Assembly (NCBI RefSeq): GCF_035084215.1 | Contig: NC_090348.1 | Coordinates: forward strand, 44,888,001-44,952,000 | Origin: Heptranchias perlo | Lineage: Eukaryota | DNA: 64,000 nucleotides | Direction of reading: 5' to 3' | Shown here: positions 1-42,849 of the stretch, piece after piece | Layout of the letters: the number at the start of each line of letters is the position of its first letter | Position numbering within the stretch: the first letter of the stretch is position 1 | The notes under the pieces: model-generated | Databases searched by the model: none | What the model was told of the DNA's origin: nothing | What the model saw: only the letters and a program-made list of their open reading frames with translations | Made by a program: the position numbers and the translations under genes

Positions 1-910
1 TAAACACTTCATGCATGTATGGTTCTGTGCATATGTGAGCAGGTCTATATGTGTCCATGCAATGCCATGTGGCTCGGTACACATATGAACAGGTCCTCTG
101 AGTCAGAAGGTTGTGGGTTCAATTCCCACTCCAGCGACTTGAGCACAAAATCTAGGCTAACACTCCCAGTGCAGCACTGAGGGAGTGCTGCACTGTCGGA
201 GGTACCGTCTTTCGGATGAGACGTTAAACCGAAGCCCTGTCTGCTCTCTCAGGTGGATGTAAAAGATCCCATGGCACTATTTCGAAGGAGAGCAGGGGAG
301 TTCTCTCCGGTGTCCTGGCCAATATTTATCCCTCAACCAACATCACTAAAAACAGATGATCTGGTCATTATCACATTGCTGTTTGTGGGACCTTGCTGTG
401 CACAAATTGGCTGCCACCTTTCCTACATTACAACAGTGACTACACTTCAAAAAGTAATTAATTTGCAGTAAGGCGCTTTGGGATGTCCTGAGGCTGTGAA
501 AGGCGCTGTATAAATGCAAGTCTTTCTTTTCTTTCTTTCTCCACATGTCCAAACAGTGCTCGTGTGGTTCTGTGCATGTGTGAGCAACAACAACTTGGAT
601 TTATGTAGCACCTTTACTGTTGTAAAACATTCCAAAGCGGTTCAAAGGAACGTTAGCAAACAAAATTTGACAGGTCCTTCACATGTACAAACAGCGCCCG
701 TGTGGCTCTGTTCATGCATGAAAAGTCCTTTGCTTACTCCAAACAGTGCTTATGTGGCTCTGTACATGTGTAAGCAGGTCTTTTGAATGTCGATGCATGT
801 ACAAGCAATGCTCGTGTGGCTCTGTGCATGCGTGAGCAGGTGCTTTGCATGTCGATATGTGTATAAGCAATGGTTGTGTGGCTCTGTGCATGTGTGAGCA
901 CGTCCATGCA
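1..910. repeat. Degenerate ~58-bp tandem repeat (CATGTACAAACAGTGCTCGTGTGGCTCTGTGCATGTGTGAGCAGGTC...) interrupted by the SINE
   Basis: Unit recurs at 1-95 and 540-910. Confidence 0.65.
95..530 (+). mobile_element. tRNA-derived SINE, SacSINE1/DeuSINE-like
   Basis: B-box-like GGTTCAATTCCC, conserved central body (GATCCCATGGCACTATTTCGAAG...GTCCTGGCCAATATTTATCCCTCAACC) and tail GGCGCTGTATAAATGCAAGTCTTTC; the same element recurs at ~22465, 34243, 42850, 52125, 53275. Family name is from recall, not from a search. Confidence 0.8.
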
Positions 911-1968
911 GTGAATACCGAAAACATTAACATTTTTCAGATTCTGTTGATACGTGATGTTTCAGATGCAATGCATGAATCTACAAATATTTGAAATACA
1001 TAAAAGATCCCTGCCTTACAGATGGAGATTTTCTGTTGGTCGGTTAGTGGCTTTCATCCCATGTGTAGATAAACGTAAATAAAATAAAAATAATTAGTTG
1101 GAGTGAAATGAATTTTGTTTTGGTCAGCTGGGTGTCGAGCACACATGGAAGCCCATCAATCATGTGTATGGACAATGAGTAATCCACACAAATAAAATTT
1201 CTAATTTCCTGATATGGAGTTCACATCTCTTCCCACCGGGACACACCCCCACTGATCTAAAATCATAGAGTTTAGGTGTGGATTGGTAAAATTAAGGTTT
1301 TAGGATCCCAACAGTATTGCTGGAATTTTACCAGCTAAGACTGTGTAGCTTGCCAACACAAAGCACTGGTAAGCTTCCTGCTACCTTTTCAGCTTGGACC
1401 ACCCTGCATTGGTTTCCAGGACTGAATGTTAAACTCTTGTAGTGCGATGGGATTAATTTAAACCATTTCCTTCAACAGTCGGCGGTGGTATTTACCAACT
1501 GTTCAGGTGAGAGCTTGAACTCTGGTTCGGTTACAATCGCACAATTACAAACTGTTTTCCCGCCCACTATTATCGAGAAGAATAGAGGATTGTGCTGGCG
1601 AGGAATCTATTCGAATCGGAATGGAATAAAGAGATTCTCAGATAAATAAGATGTGACCAGAAGCAAAGTAATGTCACCGGAGCGCACAGTTTCAGCAGCC
1701 ATTTGGACGGTTACTTTATGTGAAAAAAAAATTATTGAGAATAGAAGCAAAGACTGAAATAACGGGACTTGATAGAAAGTATCACAGTTACAGAACCAAA
1801 AATTACTTCACAGTGGGCCGATATTAGTCACTCACTGGATAAGCTTGCTATGTCAGCTGGAGAACTGCAAAAAAAATAATTCAAAGGAAGTTTAATTTAA
1901 AAAGGGAAGCATTCCGCCGAGCATGGGGAACAATTGCTCTGCTCGATCCTTTTAGTAACAGCGTAAAT

Positions 1969-2135
1969 TCAGTCATGAAGACCTCCTCTGTTTGGCACCT
2001 GTAGCAAAATCGTAAACAGGTTCAACAAACCCATCCCGAACATTACTTCAAATAGTACACGGGGCACGGGTTTAAACATGTACAAGACAAATTTACTACT
2101 GATGTCAGGAGGTTCTTCACAAAGAGTGATATGGA
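1969..2135 (-). CDS. Candidate connecting-peptide/transmembrane exon of the IgSF gene (unconfirmed)
   Basis: Possible acceptor ...CCTACCCAAAAG|TC; phase-1 reading gives VHITLCEEPPDISSKFVLYMFKPVPRVLFEVMFGMGLLNLFTILLQVPNRGGLHD*. Only moderately hydrophobic and the acceptor is weak. Confidence 0.3.
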
Positions 2136-2369
2136 CTTTTGGGTAGGATAGTGGAGACAAAAATCCACTAATCAATTAGAAACAATCGGATGGCGAGATG
2201 TGGGGTCAGGACTAGCACTGTCTTTGGGGATAGGCTGATTGGCCTTCCTTATCAGTATCTATCTTGCCCATAGCAAGTAAAGCAATTCTTCCCCCGTGTA
2301 TTAAAAGCAAATTGTACTCTTGAAAATAGACACTCTGAATAAGCTGATAAGGTTATATCCAACCCTCAC

Positions 2370-2690
2370 CTCCTGTGTGTACAGCAATGAGGACTGTGCG
2401 ATTCATCTCCGACTGTGATGCTGGATGTTGAACTGTACAAGTGAACTCAGCTGAGTCGGTGCAGTTTTCGGTGGAGATGCTAACGATTGCTGTATGGTTG
2501 TAGGTTCCATCGGGGTTGGATGAGTTGATTTGACTGGTGAGCTGGCTGGTGAGCTGGATGGTGAGGCAGGTTGCTTGGGTCCTCATTGTGATGATATTTG
2601 GATAGAAACCGTACGCTGTACATGTGACAGTGACTGAAGGTGAAGAAGCAGTTTTTTCAGAAGATGCAAGTAGCGAAAGAGAAGGACGAG
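2370..2690 (-). CDS. IgSF V-C1 receptor gene, exon 3: C1-set constant domain
   Basis: Acceptor TTATAACCAG|CT, donor G|GTGAGG, phase 1/1; ARPSLSLL...VTVTCTAYGFYPNIITM...NPDGTYNHTAIVSI...FTCTVQHPAS (C1 motifs CxAxGFYP, NxDGTY, FTCxVxH). Confidence 0.9.
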
Positions 2691-3519
2691 CTGGTTATAA
2701 AATGAAGGGCAGAGAGGTGAATTAGCAATAGAATTAGACTGATGTGAGATCAGTATGTCACTGAACTATCCAGACTTCAGAGCTAATAAAACAAGTTTAT
2801 ATTATCTTACACCAGTAGTTCTAAACATAAACATTTCTAGAAATCAATTACGACCTTTTTAGGGGGTACCAAACATTTGCATGTTTTTATTTTCATCCAA
2901 TCTCTGGATTTTTTTCGGTCTTTCGCCAGTCTGGTAACTGCATTTTTGCATTTTAAGTTTAATCTTTTCCTCTTTCCTGATTTTGTTCCCCTCTCGGTCC
3001 TCAGACTCCATTCCAACCCGCCCACCCCGATCTCATCCTATCCCCACTGTTGTTTCTGCCCTGTCAGGACTGCCCTTGATTCTTGCTGTTTTCAGGCATT
3101 CTCCAGCCTAACCCCGCTCCAGCATCTGCTGCCGTTCGCTCAATTTTCCCTGCCTCAGTCGGCCTCCTGCCTCTGCCCCGCTGACTCCACGCTGCCCCAC
3201 AACCACTCCCAGATCTTGCTGTTTCTTTCATCGACTCTATCAACCTTTTAGATGTCTCATTTCCTTCCCCCTGTGACCACCATCAATTGCATAAATGATA
3301 TACCATTGACTGGTATACTACCCATACATCACCATCAAGTGAATGAGCAAGTGATACACCATTCTTTGGTACACTAACAATACCACCACCAACATGTCAA
3401 CTACATCAGATACCCTAACAGCTGAGATTTAAAGCAACATTGCGGAGATTAGTCTCAGTGCCCAAAGCATTGAATTAGTTAAACTGGGATAAATTGGATG
3501 AAAGTGACCTCTTTCAGAG

Positions 3520-4665
3520 GAGATCTAAATAAGAGAAACAAAAGAGATTGTGAGAATAGATTAGCAGGTATCATAAAAGGGAAACCAAAAATCTTTTTAT
3601 AAACATATAAATAGTAAAAGGTTAGTCAAAGGAAGCATGGGGCAAAAACGGAGATCTTGTGGAGGCAGAGGGCATGGCTGAGGGACTAAATGAATACATC
3701 GCATTGGTCTTCACTAGAGAAGAGGATGCTGCCAATGTAGCAGTAAAGGAGGAGGTAGCAGCGATATTGGATAGGATAAAAATAGATTAAGAGGAGGTAC
3801 TAAACGGTTGGCAGCGCTCAAAGTAGAAAAGTCACCCGGTCCAGATGGGATACATCCTCGGCCACTGAGGGAAGTAAGGGTAGAAATTGCAGAGGCTCTG
3901 GCCACAATCTTCCAATCCTCCTTCGATATGGGCTTGGTGCCAGAGGACTGGAGGATTGCAAATGTTACATCCCTGTTCAAAAAAGGGAGAGGGATAAACC
4001 CAGCAATTACAGGCCAGTCAGCTTAACGTCGGTGGTGGGGAAACTTTTAGAGATAATAATCCGGGACAAAATTAATTGGCACTTGGAAAAGTGTAGGCTA
4101 ATAAATGAAAATCAGAACGGATTTGCTAAAGGAAAACTGTGTTTAACTAACTTGATTGAGTTCTTTGATGAAGTAATGGAGAGGGTTGATGAGGGTAGTG
4201 TGGTTGATGTGTATATGGACTTTCAAAAGGCATTTGATAAAGTACCACATAATAGACCTTTAAGCAAAATTAAAGCCCATGGGATTAAAGGGACAGTGGC
4301 AACATGGATACAAAATTGGCAAAGGGACAGAAAGCAGTTTTTCAGACTGGAGAGAAGTATACAGTGTGTTCCCCAGGGGGTCGGTATTAGGACAATTGCT
4401 CTTTTTGATATATATTAATGACCTGGACTTGGGTATACAGGGTATAATTTCAAAGTTTACAGATGATTCAAAACTCGGGAATGTAGTAAACAATGTGGAG
4501 GATAGTAACAGACTTCAGGAGGACTTGGACAGACTGGTGAAATGGGCAGACACACGGCAGATGAAATTTAACGCAGAGAAGTGTGAAGTTATATATTTTG
4601 GTAGGAAGAATGAGGAGAGGCAATACAAACTAAATAGTACAATTTTAAAGGGGGTACAGGAAAAT
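3520..4665 (+). mobile_element. CR1 LINE ORF2 (RT) fragment, degraded, in intron 2 of the IgSF gene
   Basis: KSPGPDGIHPR, DFQKAFDKVPH, GSVLG..LFLIYINDL, KFTDD with frameshifts. Confidence 0.9.
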
Positions 4666-5564
4666 ATCGAGTTATCACCGGAGTTGATGGTTATTCTACC
4701 TTCCATTTTACCATAAACTCCAACATCCAATAGATGTGCAAAAGTAATGCACAGAAAGAACAATATTCTTACAGTGATACTGCATTTCATTAAATAAAAT
4801 GCTTAGTTAAGCAAATACACCATTAGTTACAATAATAAAAACACATAAAATATTATGCTATATGAAAGAAAATACAGACAAGTAATCATAAGGAGCATTT
4901 AAAAAAGAATAGTTCCTCTGTGGATTTAATTTATACTATTGGATTTCCTTTTTAATGTCAGAATCAAAGTAGAAATGGGGGCAGATAATTCAATGTCCAC
5001 TGTGTAATATTAGGGTATTAGGAAAATTATATTATTGTTAAAAAGCAATCCATTATAGCAGCTATCAATTATTAAATTAATACTGTTATCAATAATAAAT
5101 TGTGTATTCAACAGTGATTTTTCTTTTAAAATTTGCTGCTATACCGTAGTTTACAAACTAATAAATAAGTAGGTAACACAACACCAAACCCATCCTTCTC
5201 TTCTCAATATAAAACAGTATTTACTGCACTGCTGAGTAAACTGGCTTTTTTATATTTCTTTTTTTATGTTTTGTATGGGATTTGCATTTTTAAACAGTAT
5301 CGTCCGTTAGAATCTACAATTGGTTCCTGTTATTTAATTAACCTTTATTCAGCACAGAATTCAATTCACCCGTGAAGAATGTGAAAGGGACAATGTGTAC
5401 AGTTCCCTGCAGATATTTCATTTTCATGGATAATCGTGAAATCCCATGAGCCATCTTTAAAAACTACATCACTTGGTAAAACTCTTGCAATCTGTCCTCC
5501 TTTCAATGTGCTGCAAGGGAAATTATCTTTGTTCTAAAGTATACCAAACTGACTCTAGAAAGTT

Positions 5565-5680
5565 AAAACAAAAAACTGCAGATGCAGGAAATCTGATGAT
5601 GAGTTACGCCTGAAACATTAACTTGTCATTTCTCTCGCCACTGATGCTGTGCCTGACCTGCTGAGTGTTTCCAGCATTTT
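5565..5680 (+). mobile_element. Short non-autonomous Penelope-type insertion with 16-bp TSD
   Basis: CTGACTCTAGAAAGTT duplicated at 5549-5564 and 5681-5696; internal degenerate CTGATGA...GAAAC core; related partly palindromic repeats at ~39770-39950, 46560-46745, 53710-53810. Confidence 0.6.
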
Positions 5681-5899
5681 CTGACTCTAGAAAGTTGTTA
5701 AGCCCAACTAATAAGGTAAAGAAACTAGTACATACATAGAATTACATAGAATGTAAAGCACAGAAACACACCATTCGGCCCAACAGGTCTATGCCAGTAT
5801 TTATGCTCCACACGAGCCTCCTCCCTCCCTACTTCATCTAACCCTATCAGTAATTTCATTACTGTAAATACATATAATGTGCTAAGAGGGAGAATGGGG

Positions 5900-6420
5900 A
5901 AAAAATTTCAAGAAACATCAAAAGTAAGAGTAAGATATTTTACAAGAATAGCTTTAAAAAGAAAATTGTTAAAAGCGAGGTGAAGCCCAGGAAGAGAGGA
6001 TTGTCAATTTGTAGATGATAATCAAAAGATAGCCGAGGTATTTAATGAGTACTTCATGTTGGTCTTTACTAAAGAGAAGGATCTCAGGGAGGAGATGAAT
6101 CCTGAAATGGTTGAGAGTGAGATGAGTGATATTGTGATATCCAGGGCCTGATGGGATGCAGCCTAGGATCCTGAACGAGATAAGGGAGGAAATTGCAGAG
6201 GCCCGAAATTATATTTCAAGGCTTAATTGAGTGTTGATGTGTGCCGGAGGACTGGAGAGTGGCCAATGTAGTACCCAATTTTAAAAATGTAGACAGCTAA
6301 TCTGGGCAATTACAGGCCAGTTAGCTCAACTTCTGTGGTAGGGAAAATTTTAGAGTCTTTAATTAAAGATAAAGAGAAAATAGTTAGAAATAGCCAGCAT
6401 TGATTTCAAAAGGGAGGAAA
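5900..6420 (+). mobile_element. Old CR1 LINE fragment
   Basis: DNA similarity to the CR1 VPEDWRVANVVPIFK and NYRPVSSTSVVGKIL segments. Confidence 0.7.
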
Positions 6421-7196
6421 ATTATGGACATTGGTTAGCAATGGGAAAAAGTATGTTAGCACTAGCTCAGAGTGTTCCTCACCACTTTATTCATATCAAT
6501 TCTGTTAAAGTTGGTCCACTGAGAAAAGTGCAATTCATTTTTAGGGCAGAGTAGAGGGAATTTTAATTTATATATAATGATTTGGTGCAGATACTAGTTG
6601 TCAGTATTCTATTCTCCAGCATTGTTAGCTCAAACATTGGTGAACACTGCAGCCCCCACCCCCAAAAAATGAAAAGAGGTAAACGGATTGAATCCATTAA
6701 TGGGGCAGTAATGTGCAGTAGTTTTCCAGCCTTGTACCATTGATGTGTCCTTTTTTATTTTTATTTTTGTTTTTACATTTATTTTTGCCTCCTTTCTCCA
6801 CCCATTTTTTTCCTTTCTCCTCTCCTGAAGGCATTGACTCTTTGCTGGGGTACAGTGTCAGAGGTGCCCTCCAACACCTCACCCGTGTGCGACCCTGGGG
6901 AGTGAATGTCACGAGGCTGTTCTGCCATGGAGACCCTGATTCTGTCCTCAACCAACATCACACATATGCACTTCCATCTGGAACACTGGATGGGGCACTG
7001 ATGGTAAATGTAGCACTCCTACCGTCATGCTGGCTAAGAACAGCTAACTCACCATAGACTGACGACCAAACCTGAGATCTTTCACATTTGTATGACTGAC
7101 ACACAATTGTATAAAATTAATTACTGCTAAAGTTTGCATGAATCTTCCGAATAATATTGCCAAAGAATCTAATTCATACAGTTATAAAATAATTAC

Positions 7197-7556
7197 CGAT
7201 TACACTCAGCTGCGTTCCATTTCCCTTTGCTTTAACATTTGGCGGAGGTGCGGTCTGAAACACCTCACAGTGATAGACTCCAGTGTCACTGGCTTGAACA
7301 TCAGCAATCCATAAGGTGAATGCTTTCTGACTGGAGTTGTGCATTGCAGAATATCGAGAACAAGCCACCCGGGGTTTATTGGTCGATAAGTTTGCGATGA
7401 TCTTGGGAGAACTTGGGTCATCATTGTGGAAATGCCACCATGCTGTGAATCTTGTTAGAGCAGGTATTGAGTAGGAGCAATTCAACGTGATGCAGTCTCC
7501 TTTAGTGGCAACAAGAGTATGAGGCTGCTGTAAATCCAGACCAATCCACTTTCCAG
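7197..7556 (-). CDS. IgSF V-C1 receptor gene, exon 2: V-set domain with germline-joined J-like strand (NKp30/CD28-family-like)
   Basis: Acceptor TCTTTTCCAAG|CT, donor G|GTAATT, phase 1/1; translation AGKWIGLDLQQPHTLVATKGDCITLNCSY...AWWHF...FTLWIADVQASDTGVYHCEVFQTAPPPNVKAKGNGTQLSVI with canonical C, W, DxGxYxC and GxGT. Confidence 0.92.
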
Positions 7557-8746
7557 CTTGGAAAAGAGATTCAGAAAAAGTAATTACAGTATGTCATATA
7601 CTGGGGTTAAAATCTCACTGTGCAATATCAGTAATGAATGTGAATGCGTTTGTATGCAACTCCTCTGTTGTTTTCATTGAAAGGGTGAACTCATTTAATT
7701 CCTTTGTTTAAATAGAGGATACATTTTTTTTACCTGTTCACATTAATGTGTCAGTTACTAAATATCATACATCACATTTTCAACCCATTGGGGTATGATT
7801 TTAAAGCTGCTCCTGTAAATGCTAAAAAAGTGAACAGAGAAGTTCAGTACAATGTGTTAAGCATTCATACTGGAACAGAGCTGCTCACAAAATACCCGAT
7901 TGAGTGCTACATAAGAACAACACTGGTCTCAAAATATAACTGATTTGCACCATATAAGAACGAGGCTGCTCACGAAATACCCTATTGAGTGCTATATAAG
8001 AGCATAAGAAAGTATGTAATTGAAAAATATTATTTGCTGTACCCACCTTAATAACCGAGAATATTATGATATTTTAATAAAAGTGCATTATAGAGACACA
8101 AAGCAACACAGCAAGTACCATGATATGTATGAGGGGTACATAGCACTGAATGGTGGTTTCTGCAAACTGAATTGAGGAATATTGACGACTGGCTCACAAA
8201 TGGCAAAAGCACAAGTGATTTAAGCATCTGTAAACCGAATAATTTATTTTGTGTAAATCACCAAATTTCTGACTTCTACAATGCTTGTTTTTGGAGAGTC
8301 TAAATCTGTTTTTCACAGATTTCAGCTGGATTTATCAGTACAGATGCAGTGAAAGGCTGTGACATGCTACACAATGAAATTAAAAATTGGCAATAAAATC
8401 AGGTCAAGGTTAATTTCAACACCAGTGAAATTTTTGTCAAATATATATATATAGATGGAAATAAATTGGACAACAGTAGTTTATGAAAAACAAAACCACT
8501 CCTGTCCTGGTTTGAAAAACGTGATACCAAAAACTCAGTGGAGAAATAAATCATGTGTAACACAAATCCACGTCGTGTAAATTAAACTCAAACAGCCGAC
8601 AATTGACTCACCTCAATATTAGCAATGTCGTCATTCATTATAAATGTCACATTTTATAGTTATTTACAGCTGTAACTTTAAATTTAGTGTCTATCCAACT
8701 TTGATTTTTCAAACTTTGATTAAAGTATTATCTTTGGGTCCCATAC

Positions 8747-8795
8747 CTGTAAACGGTATCAACAGCAGTAGGAAAAGGCAGAATAATGTCGCCAT
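8747..8795 (-). CDS. IgSF V-C1 receptor gene, exon 1 (signal peptide)
   Basis: ATG at 8795; MATLFCLFLLLLIPFT(A) hydrophobic leader; phase-1 donor G|GTATGG. Confidence 0.85.
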
Positions 8796-9319
8796 GTCAC
8801 GCAAAGATGAAGTCACTCTTTAGAAATCACTAGATGAACTGGCTTCATCCTGTGAAACTCTCAACAACCCCAGCCCAGCTCAGCTCAGCCCATTTCCTGT
8901 AAATCACAAGATAATCTGTTACCTTGTACAAAAGGATATGGAACAATGGGTGAAAGTGTCTGTGCAAGACACTTAATGGCAGGGCATAATGGTTGCAAGT
9001 GCTGCCAGATCCCAGATGAGTCCTTTCTACAACGAAAGGCTAACCGAATGCACCACTGGTTTATATGCAGCTTTGACTGCAAGAAGAGCTGGATATGTGA
9101 AATTCCTTTGCTATGATTTTACATCAGATCAGTTTGTCATTGCCTTGGGTTTTGATCTTTATTATGTCACAGGGATTGAGCCCACTAAAGAAGATTTTAG
9201 CGCAGCTAAGCTGAAGCAACTTTTTTAGCAATCTGCATGACAAGCAACCACATATTTCTGTGCAGTTTGTTACATGAAAGTGTATTAATTAAACATATCA
9301 ATTAATGCTGGGGATTCAG

Positions 9320-34495: not shown

Positions 34496-35889
34496 GAGAG
34501 AGTTAACTCCTTGCTGGGATGCTTGCCCATCTCCCTCCACAACCTTATCCAAGTGGCCTTTATTCATGAGCTTTTAACCGTGAGCTTTTATCTTGAGTAC
34601 GCAACCCATCAGGTTTACTGTCCCAGGCTACAGGAAATAAAAAGTTATTAATCTATATCTATGGAAGGAAATACATTTTTTTTTGCAAGTTTCTGATATT
34701 TTCTCACCATCCTTTCTGCATCATGTGATTCCATCTCCCATCCAATCAGTGACAGTTCATTGGACCCCAATATGCTCCCACACCTGCTAAAATCACTCTG
34801 ACCAGGTTGCTGGGAAGAGTGAGAATAGCCCCAAAGTTCATTCTCCCTCTAAGTTCTACCCTGATATTCCTGTTTTTTTTAAACATACTCAGCTGTGTGT
34901 AATTGTTTTTGCTGCAGCTGAATTTTAAAATGCAACTGCATCTAGTAAAAATATTTTGGTTTTTACAATAGACCTGTAAAACAGCAAGCCATTTCATGAT
35001 TCTGCCTCCTCCCTCGCATAGAAAAATCTTATTCTTACTACCTTTTATATATTCTTCTCCTACTCTTTAATTTCTCCCTTTACTATTTCCTAAGTAAACA
35101 GTGGACAGATAGCCAATGCTGCACTATCACCAGCTGTTATAGAAGAGGTAAGTGGTTCTTGGTGGACTGCCAACTAAATGGTAGCATTGCCTCAAGACTA
35201 CAAGGTACCTGATCCTATTGTATTCTTCTTGGCAGCAAAAAGGCCTAAGGATAATTTAAGCCACTATAATTAAGAGGTTTAAATACAGAGGAAGCATTTT
35301 CCAGTAATTAAAATACATTCTGATGCCAAACCTTGATATGGTACAAAATCACTGTTCCCGTGTGTCTTCGACTATGTTGCATTCGAGTGGGTAACCATTC
35401 CAAGGGACACTGATTAAACAGGACAGATTATTATGGCAACGTGGCTTGTGTTAAAGCTGTAAAAATGAGATGAGTCTGCGTCTCATTTTTCTTGTAGACC
35501 AAGTGGAAAATTCACATTTTGTTAATTCTAGCAAAAAAAGATGTCTAATAAGTACATTAAAGCTAATGATCTCAAATAATTTAATCCATCATTTTCTTGA
35601 GATATTACTGATGTCTGCCGTTAGCAGTTTTAAAAGGCCTGAATGTCACTTTTCATGCACAATTGCTTTCTTGCTAAAATTAGCAGAGGCAGAAATTTTG
35701 GTCTCAATCTTATTTTTTTCTCCCAATTTTCTCACCTCTTGTCTTTGGGTGACGACTTCTGTTGGGGTACAGCTCCATGGATACAACCACTCTCCAGTCC
35801 CTCACCAAGTAGCCACTCTTCATGTGAGTCCAGATAATATCTTCAGCCTGTTCAATTATGGAGGGCAGCACAGCCAAGTGTGATCCTGA

Positions 35890-38840
35890 GGGGAGTTTTA
35901 ACCCCCAATTACAGGTGGGTTGGAAGTTAAAAATAATAGAATTTTCCAAAGCGACTGCAACTCGGCTCCAACACGCCCACTTCTGGGTTTGGCTGCGTGC
36001 AAGTGACCTATTCGCCGGAGAAGGGTCCATAATTAATGCAGGCAAGCGGGTACTTGTTGGAGCAATTTAAATGATTATGAGACATTAATTAGGTGATTTT
36101 AAATTGAATTTAGGAAGCCTTCGAATTTAATGCCTCCAGCACGGGTTTCCTGGGGCTTGTGAAACTCGCCAGTGAAACAGAGACGTGATTGAGCTGCAGT
36201 TCATTGGGGTCTTTAAAGTTCTGATTGCCTGATGTGAATAAAAGCTCAGTGATTAAGGCTGGTGTCTCAGTTCCATCTGGCAAATGTTTGGCAGAGAGTT
36301 CTTGTGTTCATACAGCTTTTTCAGAACTTTGGAGGCTTTCAAACAGACAAGATCAGGTTGGGGAGGGGCGGGGGGGGCACCATGGATGTTATTCGATAAG
36401 ACATCGGAGGTGGAAGACAATGACCATCCACGGCAGCCACGTCGTCCTGTGATGGGATCTGCAGGTGCACAAGAGAGAAAGGCACAACATAGAACTGGAG
36501 CACAGCAGAGAGGGGAACACAGTGGAGAACAGCAGAGAGTAGAGCAACAGAGGGGCCAAGGTTGCAGGAGGCACTACCCAAGTGAGAGGGTCTACAGACG
36601 GAGGCTGAGCTTGCTTGACCTATCTAAAGAGCAATGCCTACGCAGGCTCAGATTAAGACGGTAGGTGGTCACAGACATCTGCAGCCTCCTTCAAGAAGAG
36701 CTGCTCCCTGCTGGACCTGGTAGCCATGCATTGCCCGTCGCTGTAAAAGTCATCACTGCCCTCAATTTCTTTGCCTTTGGCTCCTTCCAGTGGGCCACTG
36801 GAGACATCTCCAGGGTGTCTCAGTCGGCTACACATAAATGTATAAGGCAGGTAACGAATGGGTTGTTTGCCCAGGCGTCCACTTATGCAGACTTCCCCCA
36901 TGACTGACAATAACCAGAATGAGCGGGCAGTCGGATTTGCATCTCTGGCTGGCTTCTGACAGATGCAGGGTCCAATCGATTGCAAACATGTGGCAATCCG
37001 TGGGTCACCACATGAACCAGGAGTTTTTAAATCAACTGTAACGGATTTCACTCCATCAATGCACAGCTGGTGTGCAACCACTAGAGGTTCATGAAGGTGT
37101 GCGCCAGATTCCCTGGGTGCTGTTATGATGCTGTTATACTGCGGCAGTCCAACATTCCAGACCTCTTCCTGCCAGGAGACAAACTTAAGGGCTGACTCAT
37201 GACACTTGTGTGGAATCCCACTAATGAGGCGCTAAAGCGCTACAACCAGAGCCACATGACCACCAATGTGTGTCATTGAGCAAGCCATTGGCATGTTGAA
37301 GATTCGTTGCAGCTGCATAGATAGGCCTGGAGGCGCCCTTCATTACTTGCCAGCAAGGGTGTCCAGAATCATCGTGTGCTATGCCCTACACAACATTGCA
37401 CAGCAGAGAGGATTAGAGGTGGAGGATGACGAAAGCGCTTGTCAATCATCTTCTGATGATGAGAACATTGAAGAAGAGGAGGAGGAGGATGAGCAATATG
37501 AAGATGGGGCGCCTATCGCCAGACCAGTCGCGTACATTGCTGCCCAGGATGCCCTCGTATCTCAAAGGTTCACTTAGTCAGAGTGGGAAAAAGAAACAGT
37601 GAAATACTCCAGCCCGCTTCCACCACCACCCCACCCCTGCTCCCTTTGCACAAAACCCACTAACTGTGTAAAAAGACCCACCGAAGTGCGAGTATTTGTG
37701 CTGGTGCATGGCTGTACGTCCTGTGACAGTGCACCCTCAGAAGGAATGAGGTCCTCTAAGGAATCGTTGTCATGCATCTCTGCAGGATCTTGTTGTACGT
37801 GTGAAGGCCCTGAAAGACAAAAGAAAGTGATATGAATTAGTCCTGGCAAAGTAACAACCTTGCCAATCACCATACTCAGGCTTTTCATAGTTCAGTCAAT
37901 GAAATAAAGCCAGCATGTGTGTGAAAGATGTTTTAAATTCTGTCACCAGACATCTGCGAGTTCCCAGTCTCTCCATCTCTGATTGAGAGGGACGCAGATG
38001 TGTTACTTATCTCTATCGCGTCCTCCTCTGCATCAGTGAGCTGCACTATTTGTGGAGGGCCACCTCTAGTCCTCTCCCATGCGTTTTGCATTCTCTTCTC
38101 CTACATGGGAGTGACTGAAAGTCACATATTCACCCGATGGATGCAGTGCATTGGGAGAGGGAGACTATCAGACAGATGCATCACATTGCATAAGGAATGG
38201 CATGAGAGACAGTGGTTGATGGATACATGGGGAGGTGAGGAAGTGCATAGAAAGTGAAGGATGGGTGTTGGTGAAACCTAAGTGGGTGTGAGGAGTGATG
38301 TGATGGAGTATGCTTGGCAAGACACAGGGCGAGGGGAGGGGGTGTTGTACACCACAGGATGTAGGTGAATCAGCAACTGTACTCACTTTTCCTGACCTGG
38401 TTAGGTCATTAATTGCTTCCTGCACTGTAGCTAAGAATGGGCCACAATGCTCCTGCTGCTCACCTCCTCAGCTGCCTTCTTGGTAACAGAAGCAGGTTTC
38501 TTCCTCCCATTGCTGGGGTAAATTATGTCCCTCCCGCTCCTCACTGCACCCAGCTGTACTTCAAGGGAAGCATCGGTGAATCTGGGTGTTGGCCTTGCTC
38601 TTTGTGGATCCATGGTTAAATTCCTCCTGGCTCCTCCAAATTCCAATTTTGCATTGGCCCCTTAAAGTGGACTTCAGATCGCGTAATCCGGGAGCGCATT
38701 ACAGCCGCTGCGCAGCTTGCAGTCGCGAAATGCAGAAGAAAAAATGTAATTGTTCAACAAAGTTGAGATCGCAGAATCTGACCTGCTAATTTCACGTCCG
38801 GGTTTCACGTCCGAAAATCTTCCCCCCCGCCCCACCCCCC
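35890..38840. mobile_element. Degraded PIF/Harbinger element: transposase (+, ~36380-37577) converging on a Myb/SANT gene (-, ~37700-38615)
   Basis: RRHYPSERVYRRRLSLLDLSKEQCLRRLRL, ALPVAVKVITALNFFAFGSFQ, VIEQAIGMLKIR, YALHNIA plus acidic tail; minus strand MDPQRARPTPRFTDASLEV; multiple stops; ends approximate. Confidence 0.82.
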
Positions 38841-41800: not shown

Positions 41801-42849
41801 GAATTTGATTTAATCTCATTAAGGCAAGGCACTCCAGTTTAATTAAATCAAATTCCTCACACTATCCAGTTTAATCTATGTGTTTCATAATTCAGTTTCC
41901 TCATACCACGGAACCCAATAATTCCTCTAAATCACATCATCAGCACTTTCTGTTTAAACTCAAAAAAAGTTCAAAAGAAACAACAGAAAATTTGTGGACT
42001 TACCCAACTTTAGCCATGGTAGAGGTGAGGGTGCAACAATTAGCCTCAGTGTGCCAAGGCTTGGAAAGAAAGATTTGCTGCTTTTGATCATGTGCGTGTA
42101 GCTGGATGCTGGGCGCAGGCAGGCTCGGGATTGAACTTGATAAACTAGTCAAGTAAGTCACTGTTCAAGCTTAATTGTGAAGAATGCCAATAAGGTGAAG
42201 TATTTGAAGGATGCCTATGGAACCATAAGCAGCATGAGCCAAGCCTTTGGGGAGAGGGAAGAGAAAGAAAGAAAATTATATGGTGAGGGCAAGAAATAGC
42301 AGGTTAAAAAACACAAAACTCATAACTTTTTTATTGATTGATTTTTCAAAAGGGGTTCTAAAGATGCGTACTCTTTTTAAAAAAAATCCAAACTGTTACA
42401 AAGAACTATCGTTACTATTAACATTACTTTGTTCCACCTGCCCGCTTTTGTTAATTTTTAAAACATTTTGTTAAATAGTAAGGCTGATAACATAATTGAG
42501 GGTATTGGCTTGGAAAAGTTACTGTGCGTAACAGAATGAGGGAACTGAATAAACAGACAGTTAATGCTGAATCATCCTTGAGTTGTTGACTGTAGGGTCG
42601 ATTCCATGATTGTTTGTACCTGGTGCAGTTGTGTATAGGAAGTGCTAAGGTGGGGGTGGGGGGGGATCCTGAGTGCAGCAACTGTTCTTATAGGGAGGCA
42701 CAACCTTGGTTTTGCTGAAAACTGGTGCTGGAGGTAACCCATCATTGGAGAGTGTGTGGATGTCATATGGGAGAAGTGGCAGAGAGGAAAGTGGCCATTT
42801 TTGGGGCAGAGAGGAACCTTCCTAATTAGAACCACTTGGCAGCCTTGGG

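Follow-up and report, generated by a model that had tools for sequence, protein, structure and literature searches.

A six-exon, non-rearranging VJ-C1 gene of Heptranchias perlo, probably encoding an inhibitory receptor of CD28/CTLA-4 type

A stretch of 64,000 nucleotides from the shark Heptranchias perlo (G000:C27:44,888,001-44,952,000, hereafter the window; C27 is the contig carrying the gene, in a genome of 3.25 Gb) holds on its minus strand a leader exon, a single-exon VJ-type V domain and a C1-set domain. Three more exons, located 6-12 kb before the window start, complete a non-rearranging gene of six exons, whose product is a type I membrane protein. We read this gene as belonging to a lineage that is ancient in jawed vertebrates and as likely encoding an inhibitory receptor of CD28/CTLA-4 type, and assign a probability of roughly 0.68 to this interpretation. 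The evidence is best read as pointing to an inhibitory receptor of CD28 type in which C1 would serve as a spacer, rather than to a demonstrated ancestor of antigen receptors.

Gene architecture, transcripts and protein anatomy

The leader, V and C1 exons possess GT-AG ends throughout. They are all in phase 1 and form a single open frame (Table 1), as the original prediction, made from the letters of the window, had stated. In Pfam the V exon scores 59.6 bits as V-set (cut-off 26) and the C1 exon 38.4 bits as C1-set (cut-off 21), and a V-domain motif pattern matched one frame in the window as compared to none in 60 mononucleotide shuffles. Orthologues carry leaders similar to that of exon 1. 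Separate V and J segments with recombination signal sequences (RSS), the hallmark of rearranging immunoglobulin (Ig) and T-cell receptor (TCR) genes, are not what the V exon presents: scanning of positions 2301-8900 on both strands revealed no RSS in or beside it. Of the three weak matches obtained, each with two heptamer and three nonamer mismatches, two lie at 7750 and the third at 2632. By contrast, V segments on contig C240 show heptamer and nonamer straight after the second Cys.

The six-exon model is identical to RefSeq isoform X5 (P0008), auto-named 'immunoglobulin kappa light chain-like', and it agrees with contigs from sequencing runs X1 and X3. A single 1770-nt contig of run X1 carries the V exon at 1-361, C1 at 362-682 and the last exon plus untranslated region (UTR) at 855-1770; the 172-nt gap between C1 and the last exon fits the transmembrane (TM) exon plus exon 5 (173 nt, one junction base shared). 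The 1371-nt contig of run X3 has the same layout. The leader-V junction is backed only indirectly, as the latter contig extends 38 letters past the V exon; the leader-bin depth of 1.37 equals 11.4 x 38/317, which fits these 38 letters being leader sequence. The proposal of a non-rearranging VJ-C1 gene is supported as far as a spliced membrane protein is concerned. At window position 7493, the contigs of both runs disagree with the assembly base; the difference exchanges a non-canonical Cys near the V N-terminus for Phe and is probably allelic. RefSeq additionally models alternative first exons (Table 1), of which the one of isoform X4 resembles the N-terminus of a sawshark model, while that of isoforms X1-X3 lacks signal-peptide character. 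Repeats at window positions 3775-4716, 5969-6400 and 95-530, which we take to be decayed reverse-transcriptase fragments of long interspersed elements and a high-copy short interspersed element, occupy parts of the introns.

Table 1. Coordinates of the gene, its alternative first exons, its neighbours and related genes. Plain numbers are window positions.
Feature	Position	Strand	Remarks
Exon 1, hydrophobic leader	8795-8747	(-)	49 nt, ATG, 16 codons + 1 nt, donor GTATGG
Exon 2, single-exon VJ-type V domain	7556-7197	(-)	360 nt; present on contigs of runs X1 and X3
Exon 3, C1-set domain	2690-2370	(-)	321 nt; directly joined to V exon on contigs of runs X1 and X3
Start of intron 3	1..2369	(-)	gene runs on past window start
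Exon 4, uncharged TM	G000:C27:44881786-44881685	(-)	102 nt
Exon 5, basic tail	G000:C27:44878159-44878089	(-)	71 nt
Exon 6, two ITIM-type motifs and stop	G000:C27:44876096-44875989	(-)	108 coding nt, then ~800 nt 3' UTR
Alternative first coding exon, RefSeq isoform X4	42004..42091	(-)	RefSeq model only
Alternative first exon, RefSeq isoforms X1-X3	35728..36030 (approximate limits)	(-)	RefSeq model only
NRF1	C27:44.12 Mb		
AdoHcyase-family (AHCY-like) gene	C27:44.70-44.72 Mb		
Fascin, weak homeodomain, SND1 exons	C27:45.20, 45.22, 45.30 Mb		
Inverted decayed paralogue (L036, L037)	G000:C27:45,006,669-45,015,213		110-125 kb away
Family B genes, three (L091-L101)	G000:C11:54,198,025-54,371,920		non-rearranging, PPP-type V exon + canonical C1 exon

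The V domain ends in YxCx6PPPx5GxG, and YxCx6PPPx4/5GxG is the signature of CTLA4/CD28X (PMC11599192). In alignment A3, which comprises 23 rows, the three PPP positions are Pro in 21, 20 and 21 rows, respectively. The absence of an RSS from a VJ exon, as originally predicted, stands, but the G strand carries Lys at the position held by Phe or Trp in J segments and is not J-type in this respect. Likewise, the supposedly true C1-set domain reaches its Pfam score and keeps the two canonical Cys together with FYP and DGTY-type motifs, but is not canonical, as Thr occupies the core Trp column and two additional Cys are present. The four Cys occur in 21, 21, 21 and 22 of the 23 A3 rows and the core Trp in none; since the rows were partly picked by this four-Cys/Trp-less signature, the counts are a description of the family, not a test of it. 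P0126, a flagged protein in which a C domain of this kind occurs twice, is left out of A3. A 4-residue duplication in C1 is species-specific.

Beyond the window start, the protein continues with features of an inhibitory-type receptor, so that of the predicted Ig-light-chain/TCR architecture the leader-VJ-C1 part is retained, whereas the TM segment and a tail with two immunoreceptor tyrosine-based inhibitory motifs (ITIMs) depart from it. Alignment A1, consisting of eight chondrichthyan rows, shows no charged TM residue in any row, a proximal ITIM in all eight and a distal one in seven by the strict pattern, the eighth having Thr in first place. One gar and one axolotl member likewise retain two tyrosine motifs. 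The AlphaFold model of the H. perlo protein is poor (mean confidence, pLDDT, 53), and that of a turtle orthologue (pLDDT 77) comprises two Ig domains and a TM helix. Fold searches, which cannot reveal disulfides, returned only antibody Fab and TCR chains.

By analogy with established ITIM and CD28-family biology, from which the following steps are drawn, the gene likely has an inhibitory function. The V domain would use its PPP loop to contact a ligand on a cell surface; as with CTLA-4 and CD28H, this ligand would probably be a V domain of the B7 family. The C1 domain would act as a spacer in which a predicted second disulfide replaces the lost Trp. Phosphorylation of the two tail tyrosine motifs may then recruit SH2 phosphatases (SHP-1/SHP-2), which would damp leukocyte activation. 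The uncharged TM segment argues against coupling to CD3, DAP12 or FcR-gamma.

An ancient lineage and its placement

Nine of 1855 candidates matched in a word-index protein search. They come from H. perlo itself and seven other sharks, and the orthologues of the latter share 56-71% identity with the H. perlo protein. A profile search over 1.84 billion representatives returned 1307 matches; from the best 150, we named 20, picked by score and signature. Eighteen belong to this VJ-C1 lineage (zebra shark, two rays, chimaera, gar, coelacanth, caecilian, two axolotl proteins, newt, five frogs and three turtles) and two to a second lineage, family B, which combines a PPP-type V with a canonical C1 and has relatives in chimaera and turtles. 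Searching with alignment A3 gave 15 matches, in turtles or frogs only. Birds, mammals and teleosts were not represented among the matches checked, i.e. the 20 named of the 150 listed representatives; for birds, this also holds for the 15 A3 matches and the named clusters. The open frames are conserved across species. In the H. perlo genome the V domain is single-copy, with the next best match at 32% identity.

Trees were calculated from 35 of 69 C1 domains and 34 of 58 V domains (8 of 66 V rows dropped). The lineage forms a clade in both, at 100/99 in the C1 tree, where the bony vertebrates are nested at 100/92 and the bootstrap is not fully settled, and at 98/96 in the V tree. Judged by these sequence comparisons, it is one well-supported clade, reaching from chimaera to turtles and ancient in jawed vertebrates. 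In the V tree, its sister group consists of CD28H-type and family B domains (support 89/80). Profile cross-scores of 18 family V domains run in the same direction, with medians of 53.8 bits for family B, 49.4 for CD28H-type and 35.4 for IgL/TCR-gamma-like domains (IgL, Ig light chain), followed by SIRP (28.3), TCR V (22.0) and UrIg (9.3). The H. perlo V domain alone scores highest against the family B profile (71.5). As to the labels, one row each, matched in PDB, anchors the SIRP-like and UrIg-like tree rows, CD28H-type rows owe their label to motifs resembling those of supplement rows in PMC11599192, and the other labels reflect the author's recognition.

Several observations weigh against the interpretation as a CD28/CTLA-4-type receptor. 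The trees contain no true CD28, CTLA4, ICOS, NKp30, CD8, tapasin, B7-H6 or PRARP sequences, and five other groupings of the V domain, put to approximately unbiased (AU) tests, all went unrejected (p = 0.153 with SIRP, 0.192 with UrIg, 0.325 with TCR V, 0.174 with IgL and 0.196 with family B alone). The H. perlo V domain by itself scores 59.1 against TCR V and 57.6 against IgL/TCR-gamma-like domains, both above the 56.0 for CD28H-type. C1 cross-scores slightly favour SIRP (median 39.3 as compared to 33.7 for family B), SIRP-alpha is the top match in the ESM Atlas at 0.96, and the family profile retrieves SIRP-alpha first from PDB, with UrIg2 next. In several models from turtles and amphibians, the tail is reduced to a single motif or has none. 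Finally, runs X1 and X3 represent one sample, taken for RNA by guess and without tissue record. While the lineage itself is real by this evidence, its deep placement is suggested rather than established, because the AU tests reject no alternative.

Single-exon VJ-C1 genes are material for arguments on the origin of antibodies and T-cell receptors. To these, the present gene contributes a clean lineage that has one copy in this shark and whose axolotl and frog members allow testing, and its CTLA-4-type loop on a V-C1 scaffold ties a co-receptor family to antigen-receptor architecture. One idea, which we regard as tentative and somewhat doubtful, is that this unnamed lineage, older than the shark-bony fish split, joins a CD28/CTLA-4-type V to a C1 domain and, together with family B, implies a shared V-C1 ancestor from which CD28/CTLA4 would have arisen through C1 loss, the gene itself being a checkpoint receptor for a B7-like ligand. 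If true, a checkpoint receptor would be kept in sharks, gar, amphibians and turtles. Caution is warranted, as a VJ-C1 shape by itself does not make an antigen-receptor ancestor.

Alternative identities and known systems

The latter point bears on the special tie to a pre-RAG antigen receptor that had been proposed for genes of this kind and that is not supported here, as the V domain groups with CD28H-type domains, although with the reservation imposed by the AU tests. In its full form, this explanation holds that the gene is a living relic nearest the RAG-invaded gene, encoding a non-rearranging Ig-light-chain/TCR-like chain that pairs like VL-CL. The phase 1 leader-VJ-C1 exon layout speaks for it, and so do PDB matches of the V sequence, mostly antibody chains and TCR alpha, the Fab and TCR chains returned by the fold searches, UrIg2 as best C1 match, and AU tests that do not reject grouping of V with UrIg, TCR or IgL. 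However, the PDB and fold matches arise because antibodies are abundant in the library, and the best trees put V away from UrIg, TCR and IgL. Moreover, the C1 domain is derived, the J motif lacks Phe/Trp, an ITIM tail with uncharged TM is unlike Ig and TCR, and PBX genes map to C9, C34 and C40, not to C27. We therefore hold a relic of this kind to be unlikely. UrIg and UrIg2 share with our gene the elasmobranch, non-rearranging single-exon VJ followed by C1, but have three and up to 9-11 C1 domains, respectively, with conserved Trp, as compared to one Trp-less C1 here; they are elasmobranch-only and linked to the major histocompatibility complex (MHC) or to Ig/TCR genes, whereas our gene has an ITIM tail and bony-vertebrate orthologues (PMC12227049).

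Were the gene a SIRP-alpha-like receptor of sharks that has a single C1 domain, this would account for the top matches in the ESM Atlas and in the PDB profile search, for several RefSeq auto-names and for the common architecture of VJ-type V, C1, TM and ITIM tail; grouping with SIRP is also not rejected by the AU test (p = 0.153). We read these matches as reflecting shared architecture. In the trees, however, the V domains of SIRP constitute a separate clade (100/99) and SIRP C1 domains also group separately, both apart from the lineage, and the PPP loop sets our gene apart as well. SIRP has two C1 domains, whereas one C1 is present in the transcript and in the 764 kb scanned, a decayed paralogue aside. 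SEP-domain (NSFL1C-type) genes, which we take to mark the SIRP locus, lie on C22 and C3. This identity is accordingly quite improbable, and the domain trees show no orthology of the gene to SIRP, UrIg2 or IgL. The RefSeq auto-name and the loss of the C1 Trp might suggest an Ig light chain joined in the germline, or else a pseudogene. Both are largely refuted and hardly credible: TM and ITIM exons are spliced on, there is one V copy only, and the open frames are conserved between species.

The identity with the best prospects among the alternatives is a gene already described in tetrapods. PRARP is said to be a V-C1-TM protein with ITIM and switch-type (ITSM) motifs occurring in bony fish, amphibians and reptiles, and Xenopus reportedly has non-rearranging VJC1 genes. 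The layout so reported, i.e. a non-rearranging VJ with C1, TM and inhibitory motifs, is that of our gene, and the reported fish-to-reptile range resembles that of its lineage, the two being compared by description only. There is a substantial chance, although one clearly below even, that chicken PRARP (Fu et al. 2019) or one of the VJC1 genes of Xenopus (Ohta et al. 2019) has its shark orthologue in this gene. Frogs have members of this lineage, and PRARP is listed among joined-VJ genes of the Ig superfamily (PMC11599192). On the other hand, PRARP is cited as a VJ gene 'in the MHC' (PMC10751288), as opposed to the 7q32-like neighbours of our gene; among the named matches there is neither one called PRARP nor a bird protein, and family B, with its PPP-V and C1, is an equally good candidate for this orthology. 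Such an orthology would be consistent with an inhibitory mechanism but make the gene less novel. In the searchable literature, including supplements of PMC12227049 but not the key journals, we found no description of the gene.

With the CD28 family (CTLA4, CD28X, CD28H/TMIGD2 and CD28HL1-3; PMC11599192), which the receptor probably resembles in type, our gene has in common a single-exon VJ-type V with YxCx6PPPx5GxG, a tail with tyrosine motifs, whose pattern resembles the ITIM/ITSM pair of CD28HL3, and an apparent loss from some lineages. The family is, however, defined as IgV-TM-intracellular (PMC11599192), whereas a C1 exon is spliced between V and TM here; a survey built on this definition would exclude the gene by design. 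The TM segment lacks the YxxxxT motif, and the synteny blocks listed for the family were not seen, the block searched being that of CD28HL3 only. Orthology to CD28HL3 itself was rejected: the tail pattern fits, but the AMPK-beta (PRKAB-type) and PLA2 (PLA2G1B-type) markers map to C28, not C27. In the nine supplements of PMC11599192, no match was obtained for any of six short motifs taken from our gene, from its orthologues and from related loci, which is a weak negative because in the control a CTLA4 motif also gave none, as compared to five matches for a CD28H motif. The receptor c-Answer was set aside without sequence comparison, on the basis of its description as an FGFR-like protein that zebrafish and squamates possess (PMC6871517).

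Genomic neighbourhood and other V-type loci

The gene is located between NRF1/AHCY-like and SND1 on C27 (Table 1). These neighbours presumably mark a counterpart of human 7q32. In a reedfish gene table, ahcyl2, strip2, smkr1 and nrf1 adjoin, and no Ig-like gene is named beside them. The MHC-paralogon synteny once envisaged for the gene was not found, as C27 lacks PBX and the neighbours are 7q32-like; as to UrIg-type linkage to the MHC or the IgH/TCR-alpha-delta complex, the neighbours are NRF1, AHCY-like, fascin and SND1, with MHC and TCR genes not searched contig-wide. Family searches for N1221/STRIP (one weak match on C30) and Frizzled/SMO returned nothing on C27. An SNase search gave no match at all although an SND1 exon sits on this contig, and therefore such family searches miss short exons. 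In the inverted decayed paralogue, the leader exon is near-identical. Of its two C1-like exons, one is disrupted by a frameshift and a stop, and the other is open but lacks the second canonical Cys; no V exon was found for it.

On the same strand, 23 kb downstream, G000:C27:44,852,655-44,843,245 (L024, L025) carries a V exon followed by P-loop exons, which we take to be B7/butyrophilin-like and NACHT-like, respectively. This locus is possibly a ligand gene or an odd B7-NLR arrangement. Elsewhere, a single-exon V with PP loop and GxG at G000:C28:10,197,527-10,198,063 (L017) lies 1.8 Mb from an AMPK-beta gene, with PLA2 genes at a distance of 2.4-2.6 Mb, and is a candidate for the CD28HL3 of chondrichthyans, which was not detected in PMC11599192. 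A cluster at G000:C8:1.25-1.95 Mb (L117-L120, L126, L127, L130) consists of nearly identical V exons that are joined in the germline and have a very short third complementarity-determining region; they probably represent a family of innate receptors or of joined light-chain-type genes. V domains of VJ type that are encoded by one exon and look CD28H/NKp30-like are also present at C38:24.39 and 24.79 Mb, C11:48.03 and 48.14 Mb, and C6:6.46 Mb.

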